Below, in pieces: positions 2,105 through 25,183 of a DNA stretch of 26,188 bases (its first letter is position 1; each line of letters begins with the position of its first letter). A program made the translations under genes and the position numbers. The notes beneath the pieces were generated by a model. The model was given only the letters and a program-made list of their open reading frames with translations. It was not told where the DNA came from and did no database searches. The DNA comes from an uncultured virus (IMG/VR IMGVR_UViG_2049941000_000092) (Duplodnaviria; Heunggongvirae; Uroviricota; Caudoviricetes): the IMG/VR virus record IMGVR_UViG_2049941000_000092. One strand, written 5' to 3'.

Positions 2105-2299
2105 TTAATCTAGTTCTAGGTAAATTCAAGCGAGATGTTTCTGTTCTCCGTCATCCACGATTATTTCTTCAACAGCCACATCGTCATAACCGTCTCTTAT
2201 TCAATCCCTTGCAAGGTTAACGGCAGTCTCTATACTTTCTATGAGATAATCGTTTATTTCTTGATCACCAACTCACACAGAATACGCTACATAGTACAT
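2105..2299 (-). CDS. 64-aa phage protein needing TGA->Trp: MYYVAYSVWVGDQEINDYLIESIETAVNLARDWIRDGYDDVAVEEIIVDDGEQKHLAWIYLELD
   Basis: Starts 2 nt after the upstream TAA with AAGGAG at 2310-2305; in-frame TGA at 2275-2273, 2203-2201, 2128-2126; ends TAA; fills an otherwise empty gene slot. Confidence 0.8.
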
Positions 2300-2301
2300 T
2301 T

Positions 2302-2819
2302 TTACTCCTTATTAATACATTTTATAATATAATCAATAAGTGCCTTAGTACCTCCTACGATAAGTCTGTAGATTAAATACATAATTCCACATGGAACTTC
2401 AAGAGGCCATAGAATTATAAGAAGAAAGTNNNNNNNNNNAAATCATCAAGACATGTTATGACATCAATTCCAGTTTTATACTTTGCATACGCATACTTTT
2501 CAGCAGCTTCAGCATCACTAGTATCTCCTCTATTTTCAAGAAATGAATACATAGCTCTGTACGCACNNNNNNNNNNNNNNNNNNNNNNNNNNNNNNNNNN
2601 NNNNNNNNNNNNNNNNNNNNNNNNNNNNNNNNNNNNNNNNNNNNNNNNNNNNNNNNNNNNNNNNNNNNNNNNNNNNNNNNNNNNNNNNNNNNNNNNNNNN
2701 NNNNNNNNNNNNNNNNNNNNNNNNNNNNNNNNNNNCGCAATACATTGATACGTATAGAATGATATTGCACCAATGAAAATATACGCTAAAATACTGAGAA
2801 AAATCCAAAGAAAAAGCAT
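2302..2819 (-). CDS. Membrane protein(s), gap-interrupted; may be more than one gene
   Basis: Hydrophobic N-terminus MLFLWIFLSILAYIFIGAISF and C-terminal LLIILWPLEVPCGIMYLIY...INKE*. Confidence 0.45.
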
Positions 2820-2928
2820 ATGTTTAAAATTTAATATAAAATAATCCCACTGCGACAAATGCAGCAAATAAAAAAATGAATAGAAGCACAAACTTCAGTG
2901 TTTCATCTCTGTCGTTTTGTTCCATAAT

Positions 2929-2963
2929 AAAAAAAATAAGCCCCTACATTTTCATGTAGGGGC
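2929..2963 (-). terminator. Rho-independent terminator downstream of tRNA(UCA)
   Basis: Perfect 10-bp stem GCCCCTACAT-GAAA-ATGTAGGGGC followed by TTATTTTTTT. Confidence 0.85.
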
Positions 2964-2976
2964 AATAATTGTTTAG

Positions 2977-3047
2977 CCGGATTGCAAGGACTCGAACCCT
3001 GACAGGCGGTTTTGAAGACCGCTAGCCTACCATTAACTGACAATCCG
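2977..3047 (-). tRNA. Opal-suppressor tRNA, anticodon UCA (Trp-like)
   Basis: Cloverleaf: acceptor CGGATTG/CAATCCG, discriminator G, anticodon arm GCGGT-CTTCAAA-ACCGC, T arm CAGGG-TTCGAGT-CCTTG; short variable loop, so not tRNA-Sec. Confidence 0.9.
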
Positions 3048-3104
3048 AAACATATCTGACTATAAATACATCATAAACATTATTCCCCAAATCGTATATT
3101 TATA

Positions 3105-3135
3105 CAAATATACAAAAAATACATCAGATTTCAAA
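3105..3135 (-). promoter_or_regulatory. Bacteroidota housekeeping-sigma promoter upstream of tRNA(UCA)
   Basis: TTTG (3135-3132), 19-nt spacer, TATATTTG (3112-3105); matches the -33 TTTG / -7 TAnnTTTG consensus. Confidence 0.7.
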
Positions 3136-3136
3136 A

Positions 3137-3718
3137 TTATCCCTCCGAATATTGACTCAAATATGACTCAATATTTCTATCTATCTTCTCCTTTACTTCT
3201 TTCCAAGATACTGGTGTATAATCATTGTTATCTACGCCAACATCATACTGTGTGGGAAAGGTATAAACTAATCTCTTAATGTCTGATCCACTAGATACAG
3301 GACCTGAATGAACGTGCCCGTATAACTGAATGGAATAATCTTTGTGTGTAGGATTTTGATGTGCAAAACACAAATAAGGAAAATGGTTAAGATAGACAGT
3401 TTGTCCATCAACCAAAATTCTTGCTTGCGATACACAATCGTCAAATAACTGTTTCGAACCGGCAGTTAAGTTCTTCCAATCATGGTTTCCTATAACAAGA
3501 ATAATATGCCCATTTAATTGATCTCTGATCTCTTTCCAGAATGGAAATCCACCAAAACCAAAATNNNNNNNNNNAACACTGTTCCAATTTTCGATTAAAG
3601 CCGCATCGTGTTCTTCTATAGAAGAATACGGGCGGTGGCAAAACTCCAAAATATGTCGATGTCCGAAATGTGTGTCAGATGTAAAAAATAACCTATCTCC
3701 GCTATACTTTGTTATCAT
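3137..3718 (-). CDS. Calcineurin-like metallophosphoesterase
   Basis: FTSDTHFGH, GNHD, LNHFP and LYGHVH motifs; likely start MITKY at 3718. Confidence 0.9.
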   Translation of the reverse strand: MITKYSGDRLFFTSDTHFGHRHILEFCHRPYSSIEEHDAALIENWNSVXXXXFGFGGFPFWKEIRDQLNGHIILVIGNHDWKNLTAGSKQLFDDCVSQARILVDGQTVYLNHFPYLCFAHQNPTHKDYSIQLYGHVHSGPVSSGSDIKRLVYTFPTQYDVGVDNNDYTPVSWKEVKEKIDRNIESYLSQYSEG

Positions 3719-3719
3719 A

Positions 3720-4016
3720 CTACAATTCTGCGGGCTCATTACAATAAAGTACTTTATCGCCCTNNNNNNNNNNTTCAATAGATTCTACTACCAATGGTCG
3801 TGGTAGACGAAATTTGTAATCAAACTGGCCGTGGTTATAGAGAATTGTTATACATCTTCTACTGATGTCAAAGACCCAGCCTTTATAAACCACGCCATCA
3901 TCTCTAACCCAAACGTCGTCAAAAATATCTAAATCTTTGATGGTTCTTGGGCTCTTCTTAGTTTCAACTTGCAGGTTACTTGTTAGTAACTTGCGTATAC
4001 ACTTTGTCCACCACAT
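3720..4016 (-). CDS. Hypothetical protein
   Basis: ORF track; abuts the phosphoesterase start. Confidence 0.55.
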   Translation of the reverse strand: MWWTKCIRKLLTSNLQVETKKSPRTIKDLDIFDDVWVRDDGVVYKGWVFDISRRCITILYNHGQFDYKFRLPRPLVVESIEXXXXGDKVLYCNEPAEL

Positions 4017-4183
4017 TAATTATCTTACCTCCTAAATATAAACATAAGCAAACTACTAATGTCAANNNNNNNNNNNNNNNNNNNNNNNNNNNNNNNNNNN
4101 NNNNNNNNNNNNNNNNNNNNNNNNNNNNNNNNNNNNNNNNNNNNNNNNNNNNNNNNNNNNNNNNNNNNNNNNNNNNNNNNNNN

Positions 4184-4318: not shown

Positions 4319-4612
4319 AACCAGACTACCATGCCGTCTGGTTAGGCACCTGATTACAGTGTTACAGGATAAGAACTACTCATTTCTTATATGCTACTTA
4401 TACGTTTTTAGTCATAAGACTGGGTGTAGCTTACGTTATCCGTACTATTCGCGAATTATACCCTAAAAGTTCCTCAGTTTTTTAATGGTTGAGAATTAGA
4501 ACCATACCAGTCTCTGCCACTGGATTGAAAGTCATTCTATTATTGACTTACAGAAATACGCAGACAGGTTCCATCCATTTATAGTGTTAGTCCTGTCCAA
4601 CCCGACACTAAG
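4319..4612 (-). ncRNA. Candidate structured ncRNA with several hairpins and pseudoknots
   Basis: No substantial ORF; many complementary segments (see findings). Confidence 0.5.
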
Positions 4613-4746
4613 AATATTACTATNNNNNNNNNNTATGGAAAATTTCTACCGCGACAATACTTTGCAAATATAGCATCTTTTTTGGACATGTCCAAATTGA
4701 CAACTTCATATCCAAAGCGATTGTCATAGATAACTTNNNNNNNNNN

Positions 4747-4939
4747 CAACATCTGGATCGGAATTACTTTCGAGCAACTCTCTAGCTTTTTGTTGCTTTT
4801 TTCAATTCTCCCGATGACTCTTTTTATCCAAATGTTTCTGCTCTTTTACCTGTTTCTTTTTGCGGTGGATTTTTTGAGTAACCCTAAAATCGGAATCATC
4901 GCTAAAATGTTCCAATTCATAATCTGGAACTTTAGGCAT
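4747..4939 (-). CDS. Basic hypothetical protein with one in-frame TGA (MPKVPDYELEHF...SHREN[TGA]KKQQKARELLESNSDPDV, then gap)
   Basis: Frame stays open with similar composition for 18 codons after the TGA at 4804-4802. Confidence 0.55.
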
Positions 4940-5026: not shown

Positions 5027-5050
5027 AGTCCACCACCGAAGTGGTGGACT
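5027..5050 (-). terminator. Perfect 10-bp cUUCGg hairpin downstream of amidoligase (terminator or stabiliser)
   Basis: AGTCCACCAC-TTCG-GTGGTGGACT; no clear U-tract. Confidence 0.5.
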
Positions 5051-5092: not shown

Positions 5093-6190
5093 CTAGATTA
5101 TCTTGTTCGGATCGAAAATCTCATCATCGATATCGGTTCTCATACCAATATAATCACAAATGCTATCTTGTTCTGCGACACACACTTCTAACTTGTAAAG
5201 TTGTGTTTCAAGTATATCATAAAGATCTGCCGGATATACAGCTTTAAGTATCTGAAAGATGTTTAATCTTTCATTACCCGAAACATCGTGTGTTTCAGCA
5301 TAGACAAGAATTGCATTAAATACATACATCCAAGTTAGAATCTTTTCAAGATTATAAGAAGGACGTAGTAAGCGAAATTCTACGGTCTTATTGACTCGAT
5401 AACAGATAAGATTTAGTAGATTCACCCAATAATAACGCTGGGGAATATTCCATTTGCGAGCCCGATCAATATCCAATGGATGAGGTTGCTGTAAGCTACC
5501 AAAGAACCGAAGTCCGGTAAAACCTGCATAGAAATCCTCAAAGCGAGTATATGGACTGCCGAGAGCATTACAATAGTCTTTTCCCGAACTCTTATACTGC
5601 GATGTTCTGAAAGTATATTTCGGAACAAGTGCAGCAATGGAACGTTGTACTATACAACAAAGATTAAAAAGCGATAAAATTCGCTTAGGCTCTAATGGAA
5701 AACCGCCGAAATGAATATGAAGTGAACATTCTTTATCAAAACGAGTATATTTACGAAGTGTTTCCAATTGTTGGTAAAGCAGGTTAAAACCTTTATGCCC
5801 CTGTAAAACTACAGTGGAATATTCATTACCGCTAATGGAGCCATCTCGTAGAGGAATCAACCCATCCGCGAAACATATTTCCTCTGGAATGATTCCATTG
5901 GAAGTTTCAAATTCCAAACCGAAACTGTACTTGATAAAATTCTCAATAGGGAATTCAAAATCATAACGTACTTTCTGTCGATCTTTGAATGTTTCCAGAT
6001 TGTTTACNNNNNNNNNNGGTACGCTGAACATTTGTGGCGAGCCGTGCCATAAAAATGTGCACACCTTTACTGGCGTAGTAGTATAACCAAAAATAAAACA
6101 GTCATCAATTTTGTTGACAACAACACTGTGTGCATCACTTACATATATACGTTCACCAGTTACGCAATCGATTGTAGATATACTTGCCAT
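5093..6190 (-). CDS. Putative amidoligase (glutamine-synthetase-like COOH-NH2 ligase), copy 1
   Basis: FGLEFE, DGSI..EY, CSLHIH, RYYWVNL and KTVEFR motifs. Confidence 0.85.
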   Translation of the reverse strand: MASISTIDCVTGERIYVSDAHSVVVNKIDDCFIFGYTTTPVKVCTFLWHGSPQMFSVXXXXVNNLETFKDRQKVRYDFEFPIENFIKYSFGLEFETSNGIIPEEICFADGLIPLRDGSISGNEYSTVVLQGHKGFNLLYQQLETLRKYTRFDKECSLHIHFGGFPLEPKRILSLFNLCCIVQRSIAALVPKYTFRTSQYKSSGKDYCNALGSPYTRFEDFYAGFTGLRFFGSLQQPHPLDIDRARKWNIPQRYYWVNLLNLICYRVNKTVEFRLLRPSYNLEKILTWMYVFNAILVYAETHDVSGNERLNIFQILKAVYPADLYDILETQLYKLEVCVAEQDSICDYIGMRTDIDDEIFDPNKII

Positions 6191-7662
6191 AATGCGTCAT
6201 AATCAGTATTATCTTCGACATTAAATAATGCATCAAACTGTTTACTGGCATCGCCTCCAATAACTCCAGTTTTTCTTCTCACGAATTGTCCATTAGCATA
6301 GATATCAATGCTTGCTTGGAATAAAACCTGTCGATCGCCAGTGAAATTCTCCCATTTGAAAGGTTCTATGGCGTGTAACAAGTGATTATCTTCGAAATAA
6401 ACTGGATCTGCACTCAAATACCGAATGAAATTTTCGTTTTTGGAGAAGAATGGTTCCCAAGAATTAGGACTCTCCGTAAACATTCTTGTTACAAAGTCCC
6501 ACGCATTCTTACTTTTCATTGGAATACCATGATAGAACCAAACTTCCCTAATGGTAACATACTCGGAATTTTTCTCCTTAGGATCAGTAACGACCCTACC
6601 ATAGCCGGTCATACGATAGCCACCGCTCATCGGCCTGGCGTTGTATTCGAAAATATTCTTTCCAGGAAGATGTCTAACATATGCACTTCCCTGAGTATAA
6701 CCAGTTCCTACACTCTGATTAGGGGTTGCAACTTCATCGTCATCCCAGTAACGATTTTCAGATGGAACACCATAGTTATAGCCATAACCATAACTGGTAA
6801 CTGCACATCTTGCCTGAGTTGCCTTAGATCTATCGATTTCCTTTATCATATAGAGCTTGGAATCACGATACTCAATGATTTCATTGGCGGGGAGAATGTA
6901 ATAACGTCCTCCGTCAAGAATTGGAATATAAGAATGAACGGAACTGAAAACCAGCCTTCCATTCTTATAATTCAAAAACAGCGGACGTTCTTCTTCAGCC
7001 GCAGCACTAGTACTGTATTTCTTACTTTCGCCTCGGTATAGGAAAACTCTTGGTCTTCCACTTCTATAATCGACTGCAACAAATGCTGCACCACCCTGAT
7101 ATTCCTTTAATACGTCATATCCGGTATGATACAGTATTTGTGCAAGANNNNNNNNNNNNNNNNNNNNNNNNNNNNNNNNNNNNNNNNNNNNNNNNNNNNN
7201 NNNNNNNNNNNNNNNNNNNNNNNNNNNNNNNNNNNNNNNNNNNNNNNNNNNNNNNNNNNNNNNNTGCGAATCGGACATTCCGAAAACGTTTGTGTTTGGA
7301 ATATATTTCTTCGCAAGTTCTTCATAATTATAAATTGTGCCGTTATGAATAAGTACGAACTTTGTTTCCTCATTCTCCTTGATTATAACGGGCTGCGCTT
7401 TTTCGAGGCTAACTCCACCAGAAGACGCTTTTCTGTCGTGTCCGATGGCAATCTTACACCGTTTCGTTTGACGCAGCAGCTTGCTGCCAGGATAAAATGC
7501 TTCGAACAGAGCCGTTTTTGTAATACCATATTCTACGTTTCCATCGATGAAAATTCCGCATGAATCTCCACCACGTTTGTCATTTGCAACACCTAATACA
7601 CAAAACGTTTTATAGTCAAACGGTGCGTATTCTGTATTAATTATACCCCAAATTCCACACAT
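6160..7662 (-). CDS. Class II (Ntn) glutamine amidotransferase with C-terminal extension, copy 1
   Basis: N-terminal MCGIWG, RGGDSCG, GHDRKAS, HNGTI, SDS. Confidence 0.9.
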   Translation of the reverse strand: MCGIWGIINTEYAPFDYKTFCVLGVANDKRGGDSCGIFIDGNVEYGITKTALFEAFYPGSKLLRQTKRCKIAIGHDRKASSGGVSLEKAQPVIIKENEETKFVLIHNGTIYNYEELAKKYIPNTNVFGMSDSXXXXXXXXXXXXXXXXXXXXXXXXXXXXXXXXXXXXXXXXLAQILYHTGYDVLKEYQGGAAFVAVDYRSGRPRVFLYRGESKKYSTSAAAEEERPLFLNYKNGRLVFSSVHSYIPILDGGRYYILPANEIIEYRDSKLYMIKEIDRSKATQARCAVTSYGYGYNYGVPSENRYWDDDEVATPNQSVGTGYTQGSAYVRHLPGKNIFEYNARPMSGGYRMTGYGRVVTDPKEKNSEYVTIREVWFYHGIPMKSKNAWDFVTRMFTESPNSWEPFFSKNENFIRYLSADPVYFEDNHLLHAIEPFKWENFTGDRQVLFQASIDIYANGQFVRRKTGVIGGDASKQFDALFNVEDNTDYDALWQVYLQSIA

Positions 7663-7665
7663 AAT

Positions 7666-8463
7666 TTACATTATCAGATATTTTTTGATGAGTGTCCTAG
7701 CCAGTTGCTCATCACTATTATTGATGGCCTTGACAACAAGACCAGAATCAGCAAGTGGAGCACCCGTGTTACACGCATCAATAGCGTTCATTAATTGATC
7801 CCAAACGAGACCCATCAATTCGTCATTGGCGTACATTGCTGAGGACAGACAACGGTACTCTAAGCCATATGGCGTCAGCCGGAATGCACCAGCTTTACCA
7901 TATAAGCTACGACGGCGTGTGTCTTTATCGTAGAGAATAGACGGCAGTCCAAGGAACATGTCCATATAACGAATCATTTTCAGAGACGTATCGACATTGT
8001 TGCGGGCATACCCGAGATGGATATGGAAACCGCTGGATCTACCATTTGTTTGTGTGCCCTTAGGCGCAGGATTTTCGGATTCCGTATAAACGTTATAATC
8101 CGGCATACAGCCGAACAATTTTGCCTGATCACTTTGCAGTTGATCAGCGTCAACGACTTCATATGCGGAACACTTAATTCCATAGTCTGGATTAATCTTC
8201 TTAACAAATGCATCAATGTACCGTTTCATGTAATTGATACTGTTAATGAAATCCAGTCGTGATCTCACCGGAGGAATATTGAACTCGGCGAGAATATTGT
8301 CGGTTTCCAACCCGAACCCGTCTGGCATGTCGTCAGCTACATAAGGATTTCCTTTTTCACCAGGAATAAGTCCTACAGAAGATACAACTTTGCCAGTTTT
8401 CGTATTGATGATAAAGAGTTCGGGATCGGAACCAACAGTGATGTTATCGACAAGTATTCTCAT
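7666..8463 (-). CDS. Phage phiEco32-like COOH-NH2 ligase type 2
   Basis: GSDPELF, DNILAEFNIPP, FGCMPDYN, GFHIHLG, RRSLYGKAGAFR, YGLEYR. Confidence 0.9.
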   Translation of the reverse strand: MRILVDNITVGSDPELFIINTKTGKVVSSVGLIPGEKGNPYVADDMPDGFGLETDNILAEFNIPPVRSRLDFINSINYMKRYIDAFVKKINPDYGIKCSAYEVVDADQLQSDQAKLFGCMPDYNVYTESENPAPKGTQTNGRSSGFHIHLGYARNNVDTSLKMIRYMDMFLGLPSILYDKDTRRRSLYGKAGAFRLTPYGLEYRCLSSAMYANDELMGLVWDQLMNAIDACNTGAPLADSGLVVKAINNSDEQLARTLIKKYLIM

Positions 8464-9088
8464 TTATTAGTTCTGCTAAAACTCTAAGTGGATAATTGAG
8501 AAGTTCCTCTTCGTAAACTGTAGGAAGAAATTGGACGGCAATACATTTCGGCTTTTCAGGATTATCATAGACAACAATCTCGGGATTTCCCTTATTATAG
8601 TTGAGATGATAATCGATCTCACCGTTTCTCTCACTATAATATTTGATGTTAGTAGAGTATGCAATAACCCTGTGCTTAGTATACCACGGATACAGTGCTT
8701 GGTGATGTCTTTGAATCTTCGGATAAACAAAAATGCCATCCTTAGTTTCTACAAACAAATCGTGTGAAATGTTCGAAGCATCACGCCATCTGCATTCCTG
8801 AATTAATTTTCCTCCGTTCATCACAGTAAGAAACTGTGCACCTCTGCCAAATCCAATTACCAATTTATCCTTTGGAATATTGTTAAATNNNNNNNNNNCC
8901 ATGTCTGATATGTCACGGCTACCATCATACATTGTGGTAGGTTCGCAACGAGCACCATATAACATGGGATTAACGTCAGGTCCATCAGTAAATATGATAA
9001 CATCGGCAGTGTCCATCTTTTTTACGAGAGTGGCATCAGGAAGAAAGTTCGTATAATTCTTCCCACCTTTTACAACGAAAACATTCAT
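8444..9088 (-). CDS. Class I GATase (peptidase C26-like) paralog lacking catalytic Cys and His
   Basis: FTDGPDVNPMLYG, GFGRGAQFL, HHQ, QFLP. Confidence 0.8.
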   Translation of the reverse strand: MNVFVVKGGKNYTNFLPDATLVKKMDTADVIIFTDGPDVNPMLYGARCEPTTMYDGSRDISDMXXXXFNNIPKDKLVIGFGRGAQFLTVMNGGKLIQECRWRDASNISHDLFVETKDGIFVYPKIQRHHQALYPWYTKHRVIAYSTNIKYYSERNGEIDYHLNYNKGNPEIVVYDNPEKPKCIAVQFLPTVYEEELLNYPLRVLAELINENTCR

Positions 9089-9820
9089 TTATCGTGCTTT
9101 TAGTATGCGATAATTGTTAATATACTGAGGAAGATGCTTTTCGAAAAGTGCGTTTTCCGTAATATACTCAGTTTTATAATCTGGAACTTGATGTACTTTC
9201 AGATTATAGTACTTAGTATAGTCAGGATATAGTTGTCGTGCGTAAGTAATATGTTCTATTCGCTTACGCATTTGATCTATAGTTAAGAACTTACGGCAAA
9301 TTCCAAATACATGATCTCTATCACCTTCAGATTCATAACAAGATGCAACTGCCATAAACAGATTCTGAATATTATCGAATCTAAATTTAGGCAGATGTTG
9401 CATCTTATATGCTTGTGCGAGATAGTAATTCTGAGGAAATTCGTATAATTTCTTAATGCTTTGCACAATAATCGTCGTAACGGCACGAGTTGCCATTATA
9501 TCAAGATGGACGATATAACAAGGATGATTATAATACGATCCGTTTCGTACATTATACTTAAACGGATAAATCTTTGTTAATTGGTGCAAATAGCTAGAAA
9601 CCTGAACTCTAGATAAAAAGCACTGATTGTTATGACGTGCAGTTAGAGGTTGATATGAATCCGTACAAAGTTTTATGGAGATATCAGAATGATACTTTTT
9701 AGATCGATTGGTCANNNNNNNNNNAGCATCACACATAATTCTACCATTTACCCAAATATTTCTACCATCCAGTGTACCACCGAAAACAGTGCAATAATTG
9801 AGAAATCTACTGTACTGCAT
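9089..9820 (-). CDS. Hypothetical protein X (free-standing paralog of the intron-encoded ORF)
   Basis: ORF track; overlaps GATase exon 2 stop; motif-by-motif similarity to 10253..10832. Confidence 0.8.
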   Translation of the reverse strand: MQYSRFLNYCTVFGGTLDGRNIWVNGRIMCDAXXXXTNRSKKYHSDISIKLCTDSYQPLTARHNNQCFLSRVQVSSYLHQLTKIYPFKYNVRNGSYYNHPCYIVHLDIMATRAVTTIIVQSIKKLYEFPQNYYLAQAYKMQHLPKFRFDNIQNLFMAVASCYESEGDRDHVFGICRKFLTIDQMRKRIEHITYARQLYPDYTKYYNLKVHQVPDYKTEYITENALFEKHLPQYINNYRILKAR

Positions 9821-11242
9821 ATTTCAAAATCAGGTCGTTTAACATATCGTGCAATTCGCCATAGTTCATCATCTCAGGATGACCCTGTACACCAAGGCAT
9901 ACAGGCAATCCTTCTTTATGAAAAACAGCTATTTCTGGTTCACGAATAATACGCTCAGGATTAATTTTGTCTCCGTGATAATAAGAACAACGCTTTATGG
10001 TAGACCAATATAGAATATCATAATCACGTTTGTTCAAATTAAACGGATAAATCATTTGATGATGAAGAGAAGTAATTGTAAAGGTTTCTCTGCCGTTAGT
10101 AATTCCATGATTACATCCAGCATGATTATCACAATCTTGAACAAGCAAACCACCATTCAGTACACATAGGAATTGTACATTTTGTTATCGTAGGGGCTCT
10201 TTATCCTCTACTTCTGAACATTCAATTCTGCCCAGTTCGGACTATCTCTTCATTAAAACTTAGTACCTTTTAGAATCTTATAATTTTTGACATATTTCTC
10301 AACACGTTTGTCAAAAGTTTCCAGNNNNNNNNNNNNNNNNNNNNNNNNNNNNNNNNNNNNNNNNNNNNNNNNNNNNNNNNNNNNNNNNNNTAGCGTACTT
10401 CTTTAGACGAAACGCTTCTAGAAGAATCATATTGTACGGAAACTCATAAGCATATCTTAACCAAGTTAAGAGATACCTATGATAGAAATGATTGGCGTCA
10501 ACGTCAAACGTAACTTTAAACGCTGGACACACTCCAACCCCACTACGTACTTCCGGCTCTTCTTCAACATTATAGTTAAATTTGAATATTCTTCTAGCTT
10601 GTTTAATATGATAGATTAATTCTTCTTTTGTTAAAGGACAGAAATTACTCTGATGTTTTTTTGCAACTTTCAGATCCTTAAAAAGATAGATTATATAAGA
10701 TTCTTTTCTGATCGTTTTTCGATTAATAGCGTTTGCAAAACACGCATGTGATCCAAGAGGAACATGAATATCGCCATTTGCTTCGAAATACGAGCAGTAG
10801 CTCATAAAGTTTAGTTTAATTTCATTAGCCATAAAGATCTATGATTTTAATGTGGGGTACTCGTGGAAACATTATCAACTCAAAGAGTCTCAGTTTCTAG
10901 TCTCTGAACTTTCAAGGACATCACTGCCCAAGCTTAGCTGCTGATTAACATCTCAGTCTTCCAGCAATTCACCCCATTTAACGTGAGCTACGACGTTAAC
11001 CCACGACATGTACCAAATGCCAACTGATCGGGTCTCATCTTTCGGAAAGCGAGAACTTCCTGCTCGTCTCTCCTTGGACTACTATAGACAGTTGGGTCTT
11101 TAGCACAACCATATAAGGAGGGGCTTACATCAGCCCCTCCTGTGAATAATACGATTTGTGCGTCTTCTATGTTGTGAACAAACTCGACGTCTTTGATCCA
11201 GTTAGCATAATCCCAACTTGGACCAACCACATAAATCTTCAT
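9807..11242 (-). CDS. Class I glutamine amidotransferase / gamma-glutamyl hydrolase (C26-like), spliced: exon 1 11242-10999, exon 2 10177-9807, 204 aa
   Basis: Joining restores GTCRG-L-QFLCVLNGG; FTGGADVSPSLYG, HHQM and QGHPE complete the Cys-His-Glu triad. Confidence 0.9.
10178..10998 (-). mobile_element. Group I intron (IA-like, extra P7 insert) in the class I GATase
   Basis: P1 exon CGTGGGT/IGS GCTCACG with U.G; P GAATTGCTGGAA, Q AATCAGCAGC, R GTTCAGAGACTA, S AAGAGATAGTCC; P3 TGGGGT/ACCCCA; P8 CATTAAAAT/GTTTTAATG; terminal G at 10178. Confidence 0.92.
10253..10832 (-). CDS. Intron P8-encoded protein, paralog of 9089..9820, no recognisable endonuclease motif
   Basis: ORF track N-terminal part; post-gap frame LETFDKRVEKYVKNYKILKGTKF* with its stop inside the P8 3' strand. 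Confidence 0.8.
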
Positions 11243-12471: not shown

Positions 12472-12546
12472 TGGAGCCGGATGAGAATTCTGAGATCTCG
12501 ACCTGAGGCTTACAAAGCCCCCGCTCTGCCGCTGAGCTAATCCGGC
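12472..12546 (-). tRNA. tRNA-Thr(UGU) with encoded CCA and a non-canonical T loop
   Basis: Acceptor GCCGGAT/ATCCGGC; anticodon arm GGGGC-TTTGTAA-GCCTC; T arm GAGATCTCAGAATTCTC. Confidence 0.8.
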
Positions 12547-16812: not shown

Positions 16813-18388
16813 CTAAATGATGCTGTCGTAACCGAAGAAATCGTTCTCAATTTCAGTTGTTGCACCAATCATATCGTTGTACAACGATTTTTGTTGAGCA
16901 GTAGTCCAGTATTGCTTATAATACTCTTCTTCAAGCATATCGGCAACCTCGCTTGGATAAATATGCCGATATATCTCGATTAGACTATCACAAGGATTTC
17001 CATCTTGTTCTGCATATAACATGATGGCGTTGAATGTATAAATCCAGAATAGAATTCTTTCCAAATTATACGTAGGTCTAAGAAACCTAAACTCAACGGT
17101 TTTACTAGACTTATAACAGAGAAGATTAATAAGATTCAACCAGTAATAGCGAGTTGCAATATTCCACTTGTGTCCGCGATTTTTATCGTTAGGATGAGGA
17201 ACTGTTAAATCGCCATTATATTCTAAACCGACTAAATTGCGATATAGAACTGTAAAACTGGGATACTTATTCAGTTTGTTACAGTAATCCTTCCCACTTT
17301 GCTTATACTTAGATGTATAGAAAGTGTATAACGGAAGAATTGCAGACAAATNNNNNNNNNNNNNNNNNNNNNNNNNNNNNNNNNNNNNNNNNNNNNNNNN
17401 NNNNNNNNNNNNNNNNNNNNNNNNNNNNNNNNNNNNGCAGACAAATCTGATTCGAGTCTAAGACAGACAAGATACAATTGATAAATCTTTTGGGGATCCA
17501 ATGGGTATCCACCAAAATGCATGTGAAGTGAACACTCTTTATTAAAATGAGTGTACTTGCGAAGTGTTTGTAACTGCTGATACAGTAGTGACAACCCTTC
17601 ATTTCCGCGCATGACTACAGTAGAGTATTCATTACCGGAAATTGAACCATCACGTAATGGAATCAATCCGTCTCGAAAACACAGTTCCTCGGGAATAATT
17701 CCTACACACGTTTCAAATTCAATACCAAATGTGTACTTAAGATATTTAGCCAGAGGGAATTCGTGACTTACGATAACAGATTGTTTTCCCGAAAAAAGTC
17801 TAAAATTCTCTGCAGCTTCATATTTCTTCTCAAACCTATAAGGAAATCCGGATTTAAGCATATATTTCAGCTCAATGAAATCCGATTTAGTTCCCCGTAG
17901 ATAAAGAACGTACTTATTGTCTTGAGAACTCCAGAAGTATTTTCCCTCGAATCCCTGAGGTGCGATACGAGTAGTATACCTCTTACCATTATCAAGAACA
18001 ATTACAACTCGCTCTTCTCCCCTTTTGACAAAACCGTTAATGAAAACACCATTATAGTAGTCAATAGCANNNNNNNNNNCGACATTGCATTGTCCATTAG
18101 CAACGCTACTAATGGCAAATGCTTCTTCAGGTTGCCCAATAAGTCCGAACTTTTCAGTTACGAACTTAATCTCACCTAAAGTAGTAGCAAGTGCTTCATA
18201 CCTTTGCTTGGCGAGATTGGCAAGATGATTCGCACTAGTCGAAGTAATGCCATCGGGGCCAAAGAATGACTCGCTAATAGGAAGATAGTTAATCATTGTT
18301 GTGCTTTTTAAAAAACATAAACGCAATTCTTGGAGGAACACCACACCACNNNNNNNNNNAAAGAGTGTATTGCTTTAACTGCTTCCAT
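16813..18388 (-). CDS. Putative amidoligase, copy 2 (start MEAVKAIHS at 18388; interrupted by gaps and a misplaced contig 18080-18349)
   Basis: FGIEFE, DGLIPLRDGSISGNEYSTVV (identical to copy 1), CSLHMH, RYYWLNL, KTVEFR; the gap at 17352-17436 is flanked by a duplicated gcagacaaat, so it is an overlap. Confidence 0.8.
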
Positions 18389-24462: not shown

Positions 24463-25092
24463 TAGCCCGGGCGGGAATCGAACCCGCACGACCTTTCAGG
24501 TCAGGGGATTTTTGTACCACTATAGTTTTCACTANNNNNNNNNNAACATGGCTGTAGAATCTCACTACAGAACTAAGACTCCCATCATTTCTGACTGTCT
24601 TCGTTTTATATAAACTACCCATACTTGTATTTATTTGTGGTCTGGACTCTATCTTAACCATATTGAAATCTTGCAAGATGCATATCTGCTTGAACCGAAG
24701 TAACCGCAAATATACAATTCCAACTTAGGTTCCTCCTGTAATAGTCTCTACACACTGTCTAACAATCAATATACTCGCAGTAACATTGTTAATATCCTTG
24801 TCAGGGATAAATTGTCAGTGACATTGGCTCGGTATCGGCATATTGTAATGTGAGACTTCCCTTGGTTCTCACCCCCATATACTGATGCTCTGTAATCTGA
24901 GCTATACATAATACAACTTTAGCTTTCACCGAATTAGGGAGGTTCTACATCTCAGGTTATCCCTGAGTGCACTCAAATTTTTCATTAAGCAGTGATATGC
25001 GTCTCACGACGAATATCACCATAATCAATGTCTAGTGATTATTATGAAAAAATTATTTAAGTCCCCAGTGTCTACCATTTCACCACCAGGCC
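24463..25092 (-). tRNA. tRNA-Leu(UAA), intron-containing: exon 1 25092-25059, exon 2 24512-24463
   Basis: Splicing restores GGGGA-CTTAAAA-TCCCC, variable arm GACC-TGAAA-GGTC, T arm GCGGG-TTCGATT-CCCGC. Confidence 0.88.
24513..25058 (-). mobile_element. Group I intron (IC3-like) in the tRNA-Leu(UAA) anticodon, no convincing ORF
   Basis: P1 ACTT|AAAT...ATTTGAGT with U.G; P2 CTCAGG/CCTGAG; P AATTCGGTGAAA; Q ATACCGAGCC; R GTAGAGACTA; P3 CCTCC/GGAGG; S AAGATAGAGTCC; P9.0 ACCAC/GTGGT. Confidence 0.88.
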
Positions 25093-25098
25093 ATAGTG

Positions 25099-25183
25099 CG
25101 GTGGATGTAGGATTCGAACCCACGGTACCTTACGGTACGGCTGATTTCAAGTCAGCTGGTATAAACCACTCACCCAACCCACC
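25099..25183 (-). tRNA. tRNA-Ser(UGA)
   Basis: GCTGA-CTTGAAA-TCAGC, long variable arm GTACC-GTAA-GGTAC, discriminator G. Confidence 0.92.

Follow-up and report, generated by a model that had tools for sequence, protein, structure and literature searches.

The tRNA-Trp(UCA) of Mycoplasma and Spiroplasma is encoded by cellular genes in organisms that lack release factor 2 (RF2), and an opal suppressor was derived in the laboratory from the tRNA-Trp of Escherichia coli. Among viruses, zeta crAss-like phages such as Lera and ct1yV3 are described, in the accessible part of the source, as having genomes of 155-190 kb with a tRNA block, opal or amber suppression and a tRNA-SUP-TCA (PMC12386605). For the TGA-recoded Agate and Jade gut phages, the text available gives UCA suppressor tRNAs, early genes in the standard code and recoded late genes (bioRxiv 10.1101/2021.08.26.457843), and for many phage suppressor tRNAs, flanking theta ribozymes, which are like that of hepatitis delta virus (HDV), are reported in the part of the source at hand (PMC10879173). 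A full-text search of a limited collection found no paper on how such suppressor tRNAs are transcribed. Here, a gene for a tRNA with the anticodon UCA was analysed in an uncultured Caudoviricetes virus (IMG/VR record IMGVR_UViG_2049941000_000092). The whole stretch analysed, 26,188 nucleotides, is called the window below; its positions 2929-3135 (207 bp) frame a promoter motif, the tRNA(UCA) gene and a terminator exactly. The sequence makes it likely that this gene supplies the opal-suppressor tRNA of a 177-kb bovine-gut crAss-like phage that uses genetic code 4, that the gene is framed by a promoter and a terminator, and that the tRNA is transcribed and charged by the host.

The window corresponds to positions 122,299-148,885, reversed, of a 177,170-bp virus record (G001) that is rated 100% complete and contains a single run of 10 N; window positions 2737-3564 are present in it exactly. 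Genome-wide results refer to this record.

Structure and conservation of the tRNA(UCA)

ARAGORN predicted a tRNA with the anticodon tca at 2976..3047 on the (-) strand, and the Rfam tRNA model covered 2977..3047 (-) fully (1-71 of 71) at 52.9 bits against a gathering threshold of 29 (E 6.5e-9). The cloverleaf has a 7-bp acceptor stem with C1-G72 and a 4-nt variable loop; its D, anticodon and T loops read AATGGTA, CTTCAAA and TTCGAGT, respectively, and the discriminator is G73 (the G at 2977). CCA is not encoded, and CTA follows the discriminator. Therefore, the 71-nt cloverleaf with loop CTTCAAA, a G discriminator and a short variable loop that had been given in the initial annotation was borne out by the sequence and by both programs. 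The label 'SeC' assigned by ARAGORN derived from the anticodon alone; the gene has 7 + 5 acceptor and T pairs, with neither the long variable arm nor the 8/5 or 9/4 form of tRNA-Sec.

Exact and degenerate searches of viral and metagenome contigs for this tRNA returned one relative contig only (L037 = L040 = L041; 33.5 kb), which carries a tRNA(UCA) gene downstream of a phosphoesterase gene whose product is 72% identical to that of the window. This relative is recoded as well; it contains, for example, an RNase H-like open reading frame (ORF) with 5 in-frame TGA codons. The D, anticodon and T loops of the two tRNAs are identical, compensatory changes are present in 10 of the 21 pairs, and all 42 cells of the pair alignment are paired; when the pairing partners were shifted by 1-3 columns as a control, just 33-57% of the cells were paired. 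These data argue that the tRNA(UCA) is under selection and structurally conserved. A looser pattern based on the anticodon arm returned 8 unrelated phage tRNA(UCA) genes, which were used as controls only. Region 2737-4065 of the window had no nucleotide match in a collection of 50,697 phage records.

Promoter motif and terminator of the tRNA(UCA) gene

In Bacteroidota sigma-ABfr promoters, the -33 and -7 boxes are spaced by 19-21 nt. The consensus, in the part of the source available, is TTTG at -33 and TAnnTTTG at -7 (PMC7366714). The motif upstream of the tRNA(UCA) gene (Table 1) fits this consensus exactly; its -33 box starts 2 nt past the stop codon of the phosphoesterase gene, and the last base of its -7 box lies 57 nt from the 5' end of the tRNA. 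On the other side of the gene, a hairpin of 10 pairs (6 of them G-C) with a 4-nt loop begins 13 nt past G73 and is followed by TTATTTTTTTT. Its energy is -19.2 kcal/mol (z = -5.98), and none of 200 shuffled sequences folded equally well. Both signals therefore stand as the initial annotation had described them, an exact Bacteroidota-type promoter about 57 nt upstream and a strong terminator downstream. Its statement that no other tRNA shared this arrangement was also confirmed: the other tRNAs of the window have neither signal adjoining, and an exact intergenic motif was found upstream of none of the other tRNA matches in G001 (17 matches in total).

The composite motif occurred 5 times in the window compared with 1.34 +/- 1.06 times after shuffling (5 or more in 0 of 100 shuffles); the box TAnnTTTG alone was not enriched there (29 vs 26). 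When G001 was scanned for the class TTTG-N18-21-TAnnTTTG, 17 matches were obtained, 11 of them wholly within the intergenic 7% of the genome (12.4 kb), compared with 0.29 +/- 0.53 in shuffled intergenic segments (largest number 3 in 1000 shuffles). Aligned on the -7 box, the intergenic matches have further features in common: the -33 region reads ATTTTG, and the -7 box is preceded by a T-run and in most cases reads TATATTTG. Ten of the 11 face a gene or tRNA at a distance of 23-198 nt. Nine face protein genes, and the first downstream gene contains TGA in 8 of these 9 cases; in the ninth, 13 TGA codons are found in the second gene. The TGA-poor block at 122-149 kb has a single intergenic match, which precedes the suppressor tRNA.

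A similar arrangement was found in L037, where TTTG-N20-TATCTTTG lies 89 nt before the tRNA(UCA) and an 8-bp hairpin with a U-tract lies 10 nt after it. The flanks of the two tRNAs do not align, and in L037 an extra 155-aa ORF is located between the phosphoesterase gene and the tRNA. At the unrelated phage tRNA(UCA) loci, the motif was present within 200 nt in 0 of 8, and one locus had a clear terminator-like hairpin. The enriched class facing genes, the recurrence in L037 and the result for the unrelated loci support indirectly that the gene is served by a promoter and a terminator of its own, and it appears rather probable that this promoter is active.

The tRNA(UCA) could also be made mainly as the last cistron of the upstream block, with its own motif adding little or nothing. 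The stretch from the phosphoesterase stop codon (3137) to the tRNA(UCA) contains no terminator-like site; therefore, the promoter of the tRNA may be secondary, and read-through from upstream is possible. The next strong hairpin upstream on the (-) strand is located at 5050..5027, so that the block is bracketed by the only two hairpins of 10 bp with 6 G-C pairs on this strand, and the other tRNAs of the genome lack a promoter of their own. However, three observations speak against transcription mainly from upstream: the motif is an exact match to a class whose members face genes and show strong intergenic enrichment, it recurs before the L037 tRNA despite the inserted ORF, and no other intergenic match lies in the TGA-poor tRNA block of 27 kb. 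Accordingly, this explanation was considered unlikely, though it keeps some weight. What remains of the 'self-contained' transcription unit proposed initially is its own host-type promoter, represented by an enriched class and recurring in L037, and its terminator; insulation from the phosphoesterase gene upstream is lacking. In our reading, the motif would be an internal promoter at the end of an operon that is closed by the terminator. An operon-start promoter considered at 4696..4665 was dropped because this stretch lies within the amidoligase gene in G001.

Use of genetic code 4 in the phage genome

ORFs of at least 150 aa covered a fraction of 0.609 of G001 with code 11, 0.841 with code 4 and 0.637 with code 15; in a naive control with TAA opened, the coverage was 0.797. 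A greedy set of genes called with code 4 comprised 192 genes on 92.5% of the genome, 97 of them with TGA, and contained 308 TGA compared with 562 TGG codons. TGA was distributed over all deciles of gene length. Two adjacent giant ORFs at 15997-26412 (-) and 26427-36020 (-), of 3471 and 3197 aa, are open through 18 and 15 TGA codons, respectively; the latter had no match among PHROG families. Near end-to-end PHROG matches were obtained for the portal protein, terminase, DNA polymerase, helicase and primase with code 4, only when TGA was read through. The DNA polymerase, for example, matched at E 2e-138 over profile positions 50-655 of 663. The distribution along the genome is uneven: around the tRNA(UCA), in a block of 27 kb (three bins), 10 of 58 genes contain TGA, compared with 87 of 134 genes elsewhere.

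In 13 genes of G001 (L042-L050), Trp codons are nearly all TGA (at least 3 TGA and at most 1 TGG), e.g., at 420-797, 71868-72737, 74196-75656, 171721-172500 and 175741-176370. The set includes a 486-aa protein with 6 TGA and 1 TGG and the 64-aa gene of the window (Table 1). These 13 genes would depend most strictly on the suppressor tRNA.

Rfam gave 17 tRNA matches in G001 and ARAGORN gave 15, with one stop anticodon only (UCA); neither a tRNA-Trp(CCA) nor a CTA suppressor was found in G001 by ARAGORN. The initial annotation had proposed to look for release factor 1 (RF1) and tryptophanyl-tRNA synthetase (TrpRS), among others, in the rest of the genome. Neither turned up in six-frame searches of G001 with the Pfam families RF-1, PCRF and tRNA-synt_1b, which were positive in control genomes. 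Charging of the tRNA and competition with RF2 would therefore have to rest on host factors, and the tRNA(UCA) appears to be the sole recognisable component of the code change in this genome. Outside the window, at 120299-120691 (+), a putative transfer-messenger RNA (tmRNA) with a 30-residue tag was called by ARAGORN, which also called one in the related contig L005.

The extent of recoding bears on the idea that the tRNA serves mainly to damage the host, through read-through of UGA stops or weakened defence proteins, with decoding of phage genes being secondary. This idea was raised, in the accessible text, for zeta crAss-like phages that have suppressors but no recoding (PMC12386605), and a host-type promoter of the tRNA(UCA) gene would be in line with it. 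However, 97 of the 192 genes, including those for the terminase, portal protein and DNA polymerase, need TGA decoding; decoding of the phage's own genes is therefore indispensable, and a mainly host-damaging role is very unlikely. Read-through of host UGA stops may occur as a side effect.

Amino acid inserted at TGA

The strongest argument for decoding of TGA as Trp is that in-frame TGA codons pair with conserved Trp in two protein families. For the terminase, 59 homologues were picked from 120 listed, of 577 that passed E 1e-20. At the six TGA sites, W was the commonest residue in each case (in 59, 27, 58, 53, 24 and 59 of the 59 homologues), and eight TGG positions showed a W spread similar to that at the TGA positions; some of these homologues may themselves be translated from TGA. 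Several terminase homologues (P0143, P0186, P0213, P0216, P0219 and P0221) are 990-1135 aa long, with intein or homing-endonuclease Pfam domains.

The second family is that of the 64-aa gene, which has no family in Pfam or PHROGs and for which a full HMMER search gave 101 proteins at E up to 0.001. The alignment contained 76 homologues, i.e., P0002 and 75 short HMMER matches, long multi-stretch ones being left out. At the three TGA sites, W was present in 74 of 76, 41 of 76 (with Y in 33) and 12 of 16 ungapped homologues. In contig X7, obtained from DNA in another study, this gene differs at 6 places; 5 of the substitutions fall on third codon positions, and 4 are synonymous. All 6 lie past the first TGA and three past the second, and none touches a TGA, so that all three TGA codons are kept.

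Considering these two families, the restoration of core proteins by code 4 and the presence of a single suppressor in a 177-kb genome, decoding of TGA as Trp, as proposed in the initial annotation, is strongly supported by the sequence.

The tRNA itself was compared with other tRNAs. In a BLAST search of the 50,697 phage records, 28 records were matched, 20 of them with an annotated feature underneath; 17 of these 20 were tRNA-Trp and 3, the weakest, were tRNA-Arg. This test is biased because the anticodon loop of the window tRNA differs from that of Trp by one base. A pattern consisting of the D-loop, anticodon-arm and T-arm letters of the window tRNA, with T34 changed to C, was also searched in bacterial genomes. 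It matched at least 120 genomes, mostly of Clostridia and several of Bacteroidota, and ARAGORN called a tRNA-Trp(CCA) in all 120 matches listed; the best of these cellular tRNA-Trp genes shared 54 of 71 bases with the window tRNA, variable loop included. The identity set of bacterial tRNA-Trp, as established in E. coli, comprises G73, A1-U72, G5-C68 and the anticodon CCA. G73 was found in 119 of the 119 full-length cellular tRNA-Trp genes among the matches listed, as in the window tRNA; therefore, the earlier argument from G73 holds. The window tRNA has U34 where the Trp set has C34, C35 and A36 being retained, and this single change from C34 to U34 would be enough to make it a suppressor. Taken together, the tRNA(UCA) very probably functions as a suppressor that reads TGA as Trp.

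Several observations, in addition to the missing insulation described above, weigh against the interpretation as a whole. The gene set of G001 comes from a crude, greedy calling of ORFs restricted to ATG starts, and only three or four genes with in-frame TGA lie within the 26-kb window. G001 contains 100% of the sampled words of the window, and the two are probably not independent. Contigs from both DNA and RNA libraries break in or beside the tRNA (at 2999, 3024, 3027, 3029 and 3054); therefore, the sequencing runs reveal no transcript ends and do not read the anticodon independently. C1-G72 is present in the window tRNA, compared with A1-U72 in 117 of the 119 cellular tRNA-Trp genes among the matches listed, and the L037 orthologue, unlike the window tRNA, has A1-U72. 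Ranking of neighbours among 129 phage tRNAs with the anticodon masked was not decisive, the best non-UCA neighbours being Met and Thr, then Trp and Cys. In addition, the anticodon arm is common to the tRNA-Cys(GCA) genes of relatives, differing only at base 34.

The last of these points bear on whether a residue other than Trp (Arg, Cys or Gly) is inserted at UGA or whether the gene encodes a tRNA-Sec. According to the available part of the text, tRNAscan-SE assigned 'Trp or arginine' to the suppressor tRNA SUP-TCA of phage Lera (PMC12386605). The three tRNA-Arg annotations among the BLAST matches, the arm shared with tRNA-Cys and the pair C1-G72, atypical for Trp, point in the same direction. 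Nevertheless, a non-Trp residue is most improbable, since Trp is the invariant or majority residue opposite TGA in two families, where R, C or G never predominates, G73 is that of cellular tRNA-Trp while the tRNA-Cys genes of relatives have T73, position 20 of the D-loop (in the numbering used here) is U and not A20, which we take to be an identity element for ArgRS (arginyl-tRNA synthetase), and the 4-nt variable loop with 7 + 5 pairs differs from the long arm and 8/5 form of tRNA-Sec.

Proposed expression of the suppressor

If the suppressor is expressed from its own promoter, host RNA polymerase would start a few bases past TATATTTG and produce a precursor of approximately 170 nt with a leader of approximately 50 nt, to which read-through transcripts from the upstream block of tRNAs and small genes may add. 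For its maturation, the tRNA would then rely on RNase P, enzymes that trim the 3' end and the CCA-adding enzyme, all from the host; the last would be needed because CCA is not encoded. Host TrpRS would charge it via G73, C35 and A36, and U34 would read UGA, and probably UGG, in competition with host RF2. Because of this competition, it is proposed that recoded structural, lysis and replication genes would be translated only once the tRNA had accumulated.

A further and more tentative idea, which on balance is doubtful, is that promoter, tRNA and terminator form an autonomous 'code-switch cassette', tied to the host-sigma promoter class that also heads operons with TGA. By means of this cassette, host RNA polymerase would turn on the suppressor and its client genes at the same time, while the surrounding TGA-poor block of tRNA and auxiliary genes is transcribed otherwise. 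If this were true, a 177-kb phage would change its code through the 207-bp unit alone, RF1, TrpRS and a ribozyme all being absent, and the unit's small size would allow it to pass from one phage to another and to seed recoding there. Confirmation of the promoter would show the timing of the code switch and the polymerase responsible; it would also make the 207-bp unit available as a minimal construct for tests of UGA suppression in Bacteroides.

Genes around the tRNA and quality of the window sequence

The features around the tRNA(UCA) are listed in Table 1.

Table 1. Features at and around the tRNA(UCA) gene (positions in the window)
Feature	Position	Strand	Remarks
tRNA, anticodon UCA	2977..3047	(-)	71 nt; anticodon 3015..3013; ARAGORN, Rfam
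Promoter motif TTTG-N19-TATATTTG	3105..3135	(-)	-33 TTTG 3135..3132, 19-nt spacer, -7 box 3112..3105; exact pattern match
Overlapping promoter-like match TTTG-N18-TAATTTTG	3132..3161	(-)	mostly in the end of the phosphoesterase gene; coding fraction 0.83
Intrinsic terminator	2929..2963	(-)	hairpin 2963..2940, U-tract 2939..2929
Metallophosphoesterase gene, upstream	3137..3778	(-)	no in-frame TGA; phrog_547, E 9.2e-37
First gene past the terminator, start	2736..2906	(-)	TGA at 2897..2895; 111 aa in G001, membrane-protein-like
64-aa gene	2105..2299	(-)	Trp codons all TGA (2275..2273, 2203..2201, 2128..2126); no TGG
Small gene (MPKVPDYELEHF...)	4747..4939	(-)	in-frame TGA at 4804..4802
Upstream block (small TGA gene, tRNA-His, tRNA-Asn, tRNA-Arg, two small genes, phosphoesterase)		(-)	terminators 5050..5027 and 2963..2940

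The homologue of the small gene at 4747..4939 in L037 contains one in-frame TGA as well, its only W at the matching place. Two further tRNA-like features of the window are noted. At 12475-12546 (-), a tRNA missed by ARAGORN was matched by Rfam at 48 bits, with the loop TTTGTAA (UGU, Thr) and an irregular T-arm. At approximately 25040-25095 (-), just past the tRNA-Ser at 25098-25183, a likeness to the 5' half of a tRNA, with the D-arm-like GGTGAAATGGTAGAC and the loop ACTTAAA and no 3' half, may be a tRNA remnant.

The window contains 34 runs of N, which do not reflect the true lengths of the stretches they replace (e.g., 3565-3574, 4066-4183 and 6008-6017). The GD motif of the phosphoesterase, present in G001 and L037, is lost across the 10-N run at 3565-3574, and the run at 4066-4183 conceals the tRNA-Asn(GTT) and tRNA-Arg(TCT). 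Two pieces are displaced: 2440-2566 belongs to a gene near 148 kb of G001, and 4579-4736 belongs inside the amidoligase gene in G001. An independent contig connects 2429 to 2736 with 37 letters between them. The window copy of the gene at 2736..2906 is broken by N runs and a misplaced piece. Therefore, frames across N runs of the window cannot be trusted. The distance of approximately 0.7 kb that had been given between the TGA-containing gene and the tRNA is correct for the window (678 nt) but not for G001 (409 nt), because the window carries a misplaced piece between the 64-aa gene and the tRNA.

Three apparent TGA stops of window ORFs (17271, 10311 and 16413) are doubtful, since each ORF is interrupted by an N run shortly before its TGA. 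At 17271 the amidoligase reading goes on in another frame, and the TGA at 10311 sits 14 nt past an N run, which makes its frame uncertain.

Four sequencing runs were available as assembled contigs from DNA and RNA libraries. In the RNA libraries, contigs X5 and X9 span the promoter motif, reaching from the phosphoesterase gene to 3027 and 3054. These ends were rejected as transcript ends, since DNA contigs break in the same tRNA (at 2999, 3024 and 3029), and were read as assembly breaks at letters shared between tRNAs. The anticodon was covered in the runs only by a 40-nt piece from a different tRNA(UCA). A different tRNA(UCA), with the stem CCAGT/ACTGG and a shared T-arm, was seen beside 3024 in run X12 from another bovine-gut study; therefore, other opal-suppressor phages apparently co-occur in the bovine gut.

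The phage and its relatives

The terminase of G001, translated with code 4, matched 109 of the 50,697 phage records at 26-46% identity, all of them crAss-like or unnamed gut phages. Hosts named among these records are Bacteroides, Azobacteroides and Cellulophaga, and 68 records give no host. For the terminase and portal protein, the families phrog_6681 and phrog_6547 were matched. The window carries a cassette with a phiEco32-type COOH-NH2 ligase, an amidoligase and glutamine amidotransferases; a nucleoside deoxyribosyltransferase and an RNA-repair HAD domain are encoded as well. Amidoligase, class-II glutamine amidotransferase, COOH-NH2 ligase and peptidase C26-like amidotransferase genes are located at 5093-9820 (-) and 16813-18344 (-), and a second amidoligase paralogue is split by an N run. 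This ligase cassette is syntenic with that of Crassvirales phage cr108_1. By terminase and portal likeness and by cassette synteny, G001 appears to be a crAss-like phage. A Shine-Dalgarno-like motif was found at just 5 of 32 gene starts, and the runs containing the stretch are labelled bovine gut.

Relatives detected via the ligase are contigs mostly of approximately 94-305 kb, several with tRNA blocks. CTA amber suppressor tRNAs were found in L002 (18812-18891), L003 (18370-18449) and L005 (3951-4028), whose ligase cassettes are approximately 63% identical to that of the window, and a tRNA-Trp(CCA) is present in L001 and L005. Apparently, the kind of suppressor varies within the lineage that carries the ligase cassette.

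Comparison with known systems

The locus resembles the tRNA-Trp(UCA) of Mycoplasma and Spiroplasma and the E. coli mutant in having a Trp tRNA body in which U34 replaces C34 and reads UGA. It differs in that the cell into which a virus would bring the tRNA uses the standard code and retains RF2.

Agate and Jade phages likewise combine code 4, a host predicted to use the standard code and a phage UGA suppressor tRNA, and in the text available for them TGA is rare as a stop and recoding is proposed as a timing device. The same text describes an operon for TrpRS and RF1 in Jade phages, neither of which was found in G001, and G001 differs from both groups, as far as described there, in that its replication genes are recoded too. 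The words 'promoter' and 'terminator' do not occur in the accessible text (bioRxiv 10.1101/2021.08.26.457843).

The suppressor tRNAs with theta ribozymes, in the part of the source at hand, resemble the present one in that the 3' end is set by a dedicated element directly after the gene (PMC10879173). They differ in the element: an HDV-like ribozyme would cleave within 5 nt of the 3' end of the tRNA, whereas here a simple hairpin of 10 bp, followed by a U-tract, begins 13 nt past G73. No Rfam ribozyme family matched 2737-3300 at E up to 10 in a scan with models other than a theta-specific one, and only simple hairpin folds were obtained.

The closest likeness is to the zeta crAss-like phages. 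Likened by description, G001 fits them by size, tRNA block and suppression: the accessible text reports genomes of approximately 155-190 kb, a block of some 20-30 tRNAs, a single UCA suppressor, TGA as Trp in terminase, RNA polymerase, helicase, structural and lysis genes, predicted Bacteroidota hosts and relatives that use CTA, as do L002, L003 and L005 here. According to this text, Lera carries both suppressors, whereas G001 lacks the CTA suppressor. The words 'promoter' and 'terminator' are absent from the text at hand, and the anatomy of the transcription unit is not described in it (PMC12386605). Unlike Lera and ct1yV3, the present phage is of bovine-gut origin, and its sequence was absent from the 50,697 phage records. 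Thus, TGA decoding as Trp via a phage tRNA is already known in crAss-like and gut phages, and the apparent own promoter and terminator of the tRNA gene, of a class shared with operons of client genes, are a modest addition. The analysis also adds a complete 177-kb TGA-recoded crAss-like phage of cattle to a class that has mostly been described from the human gut.

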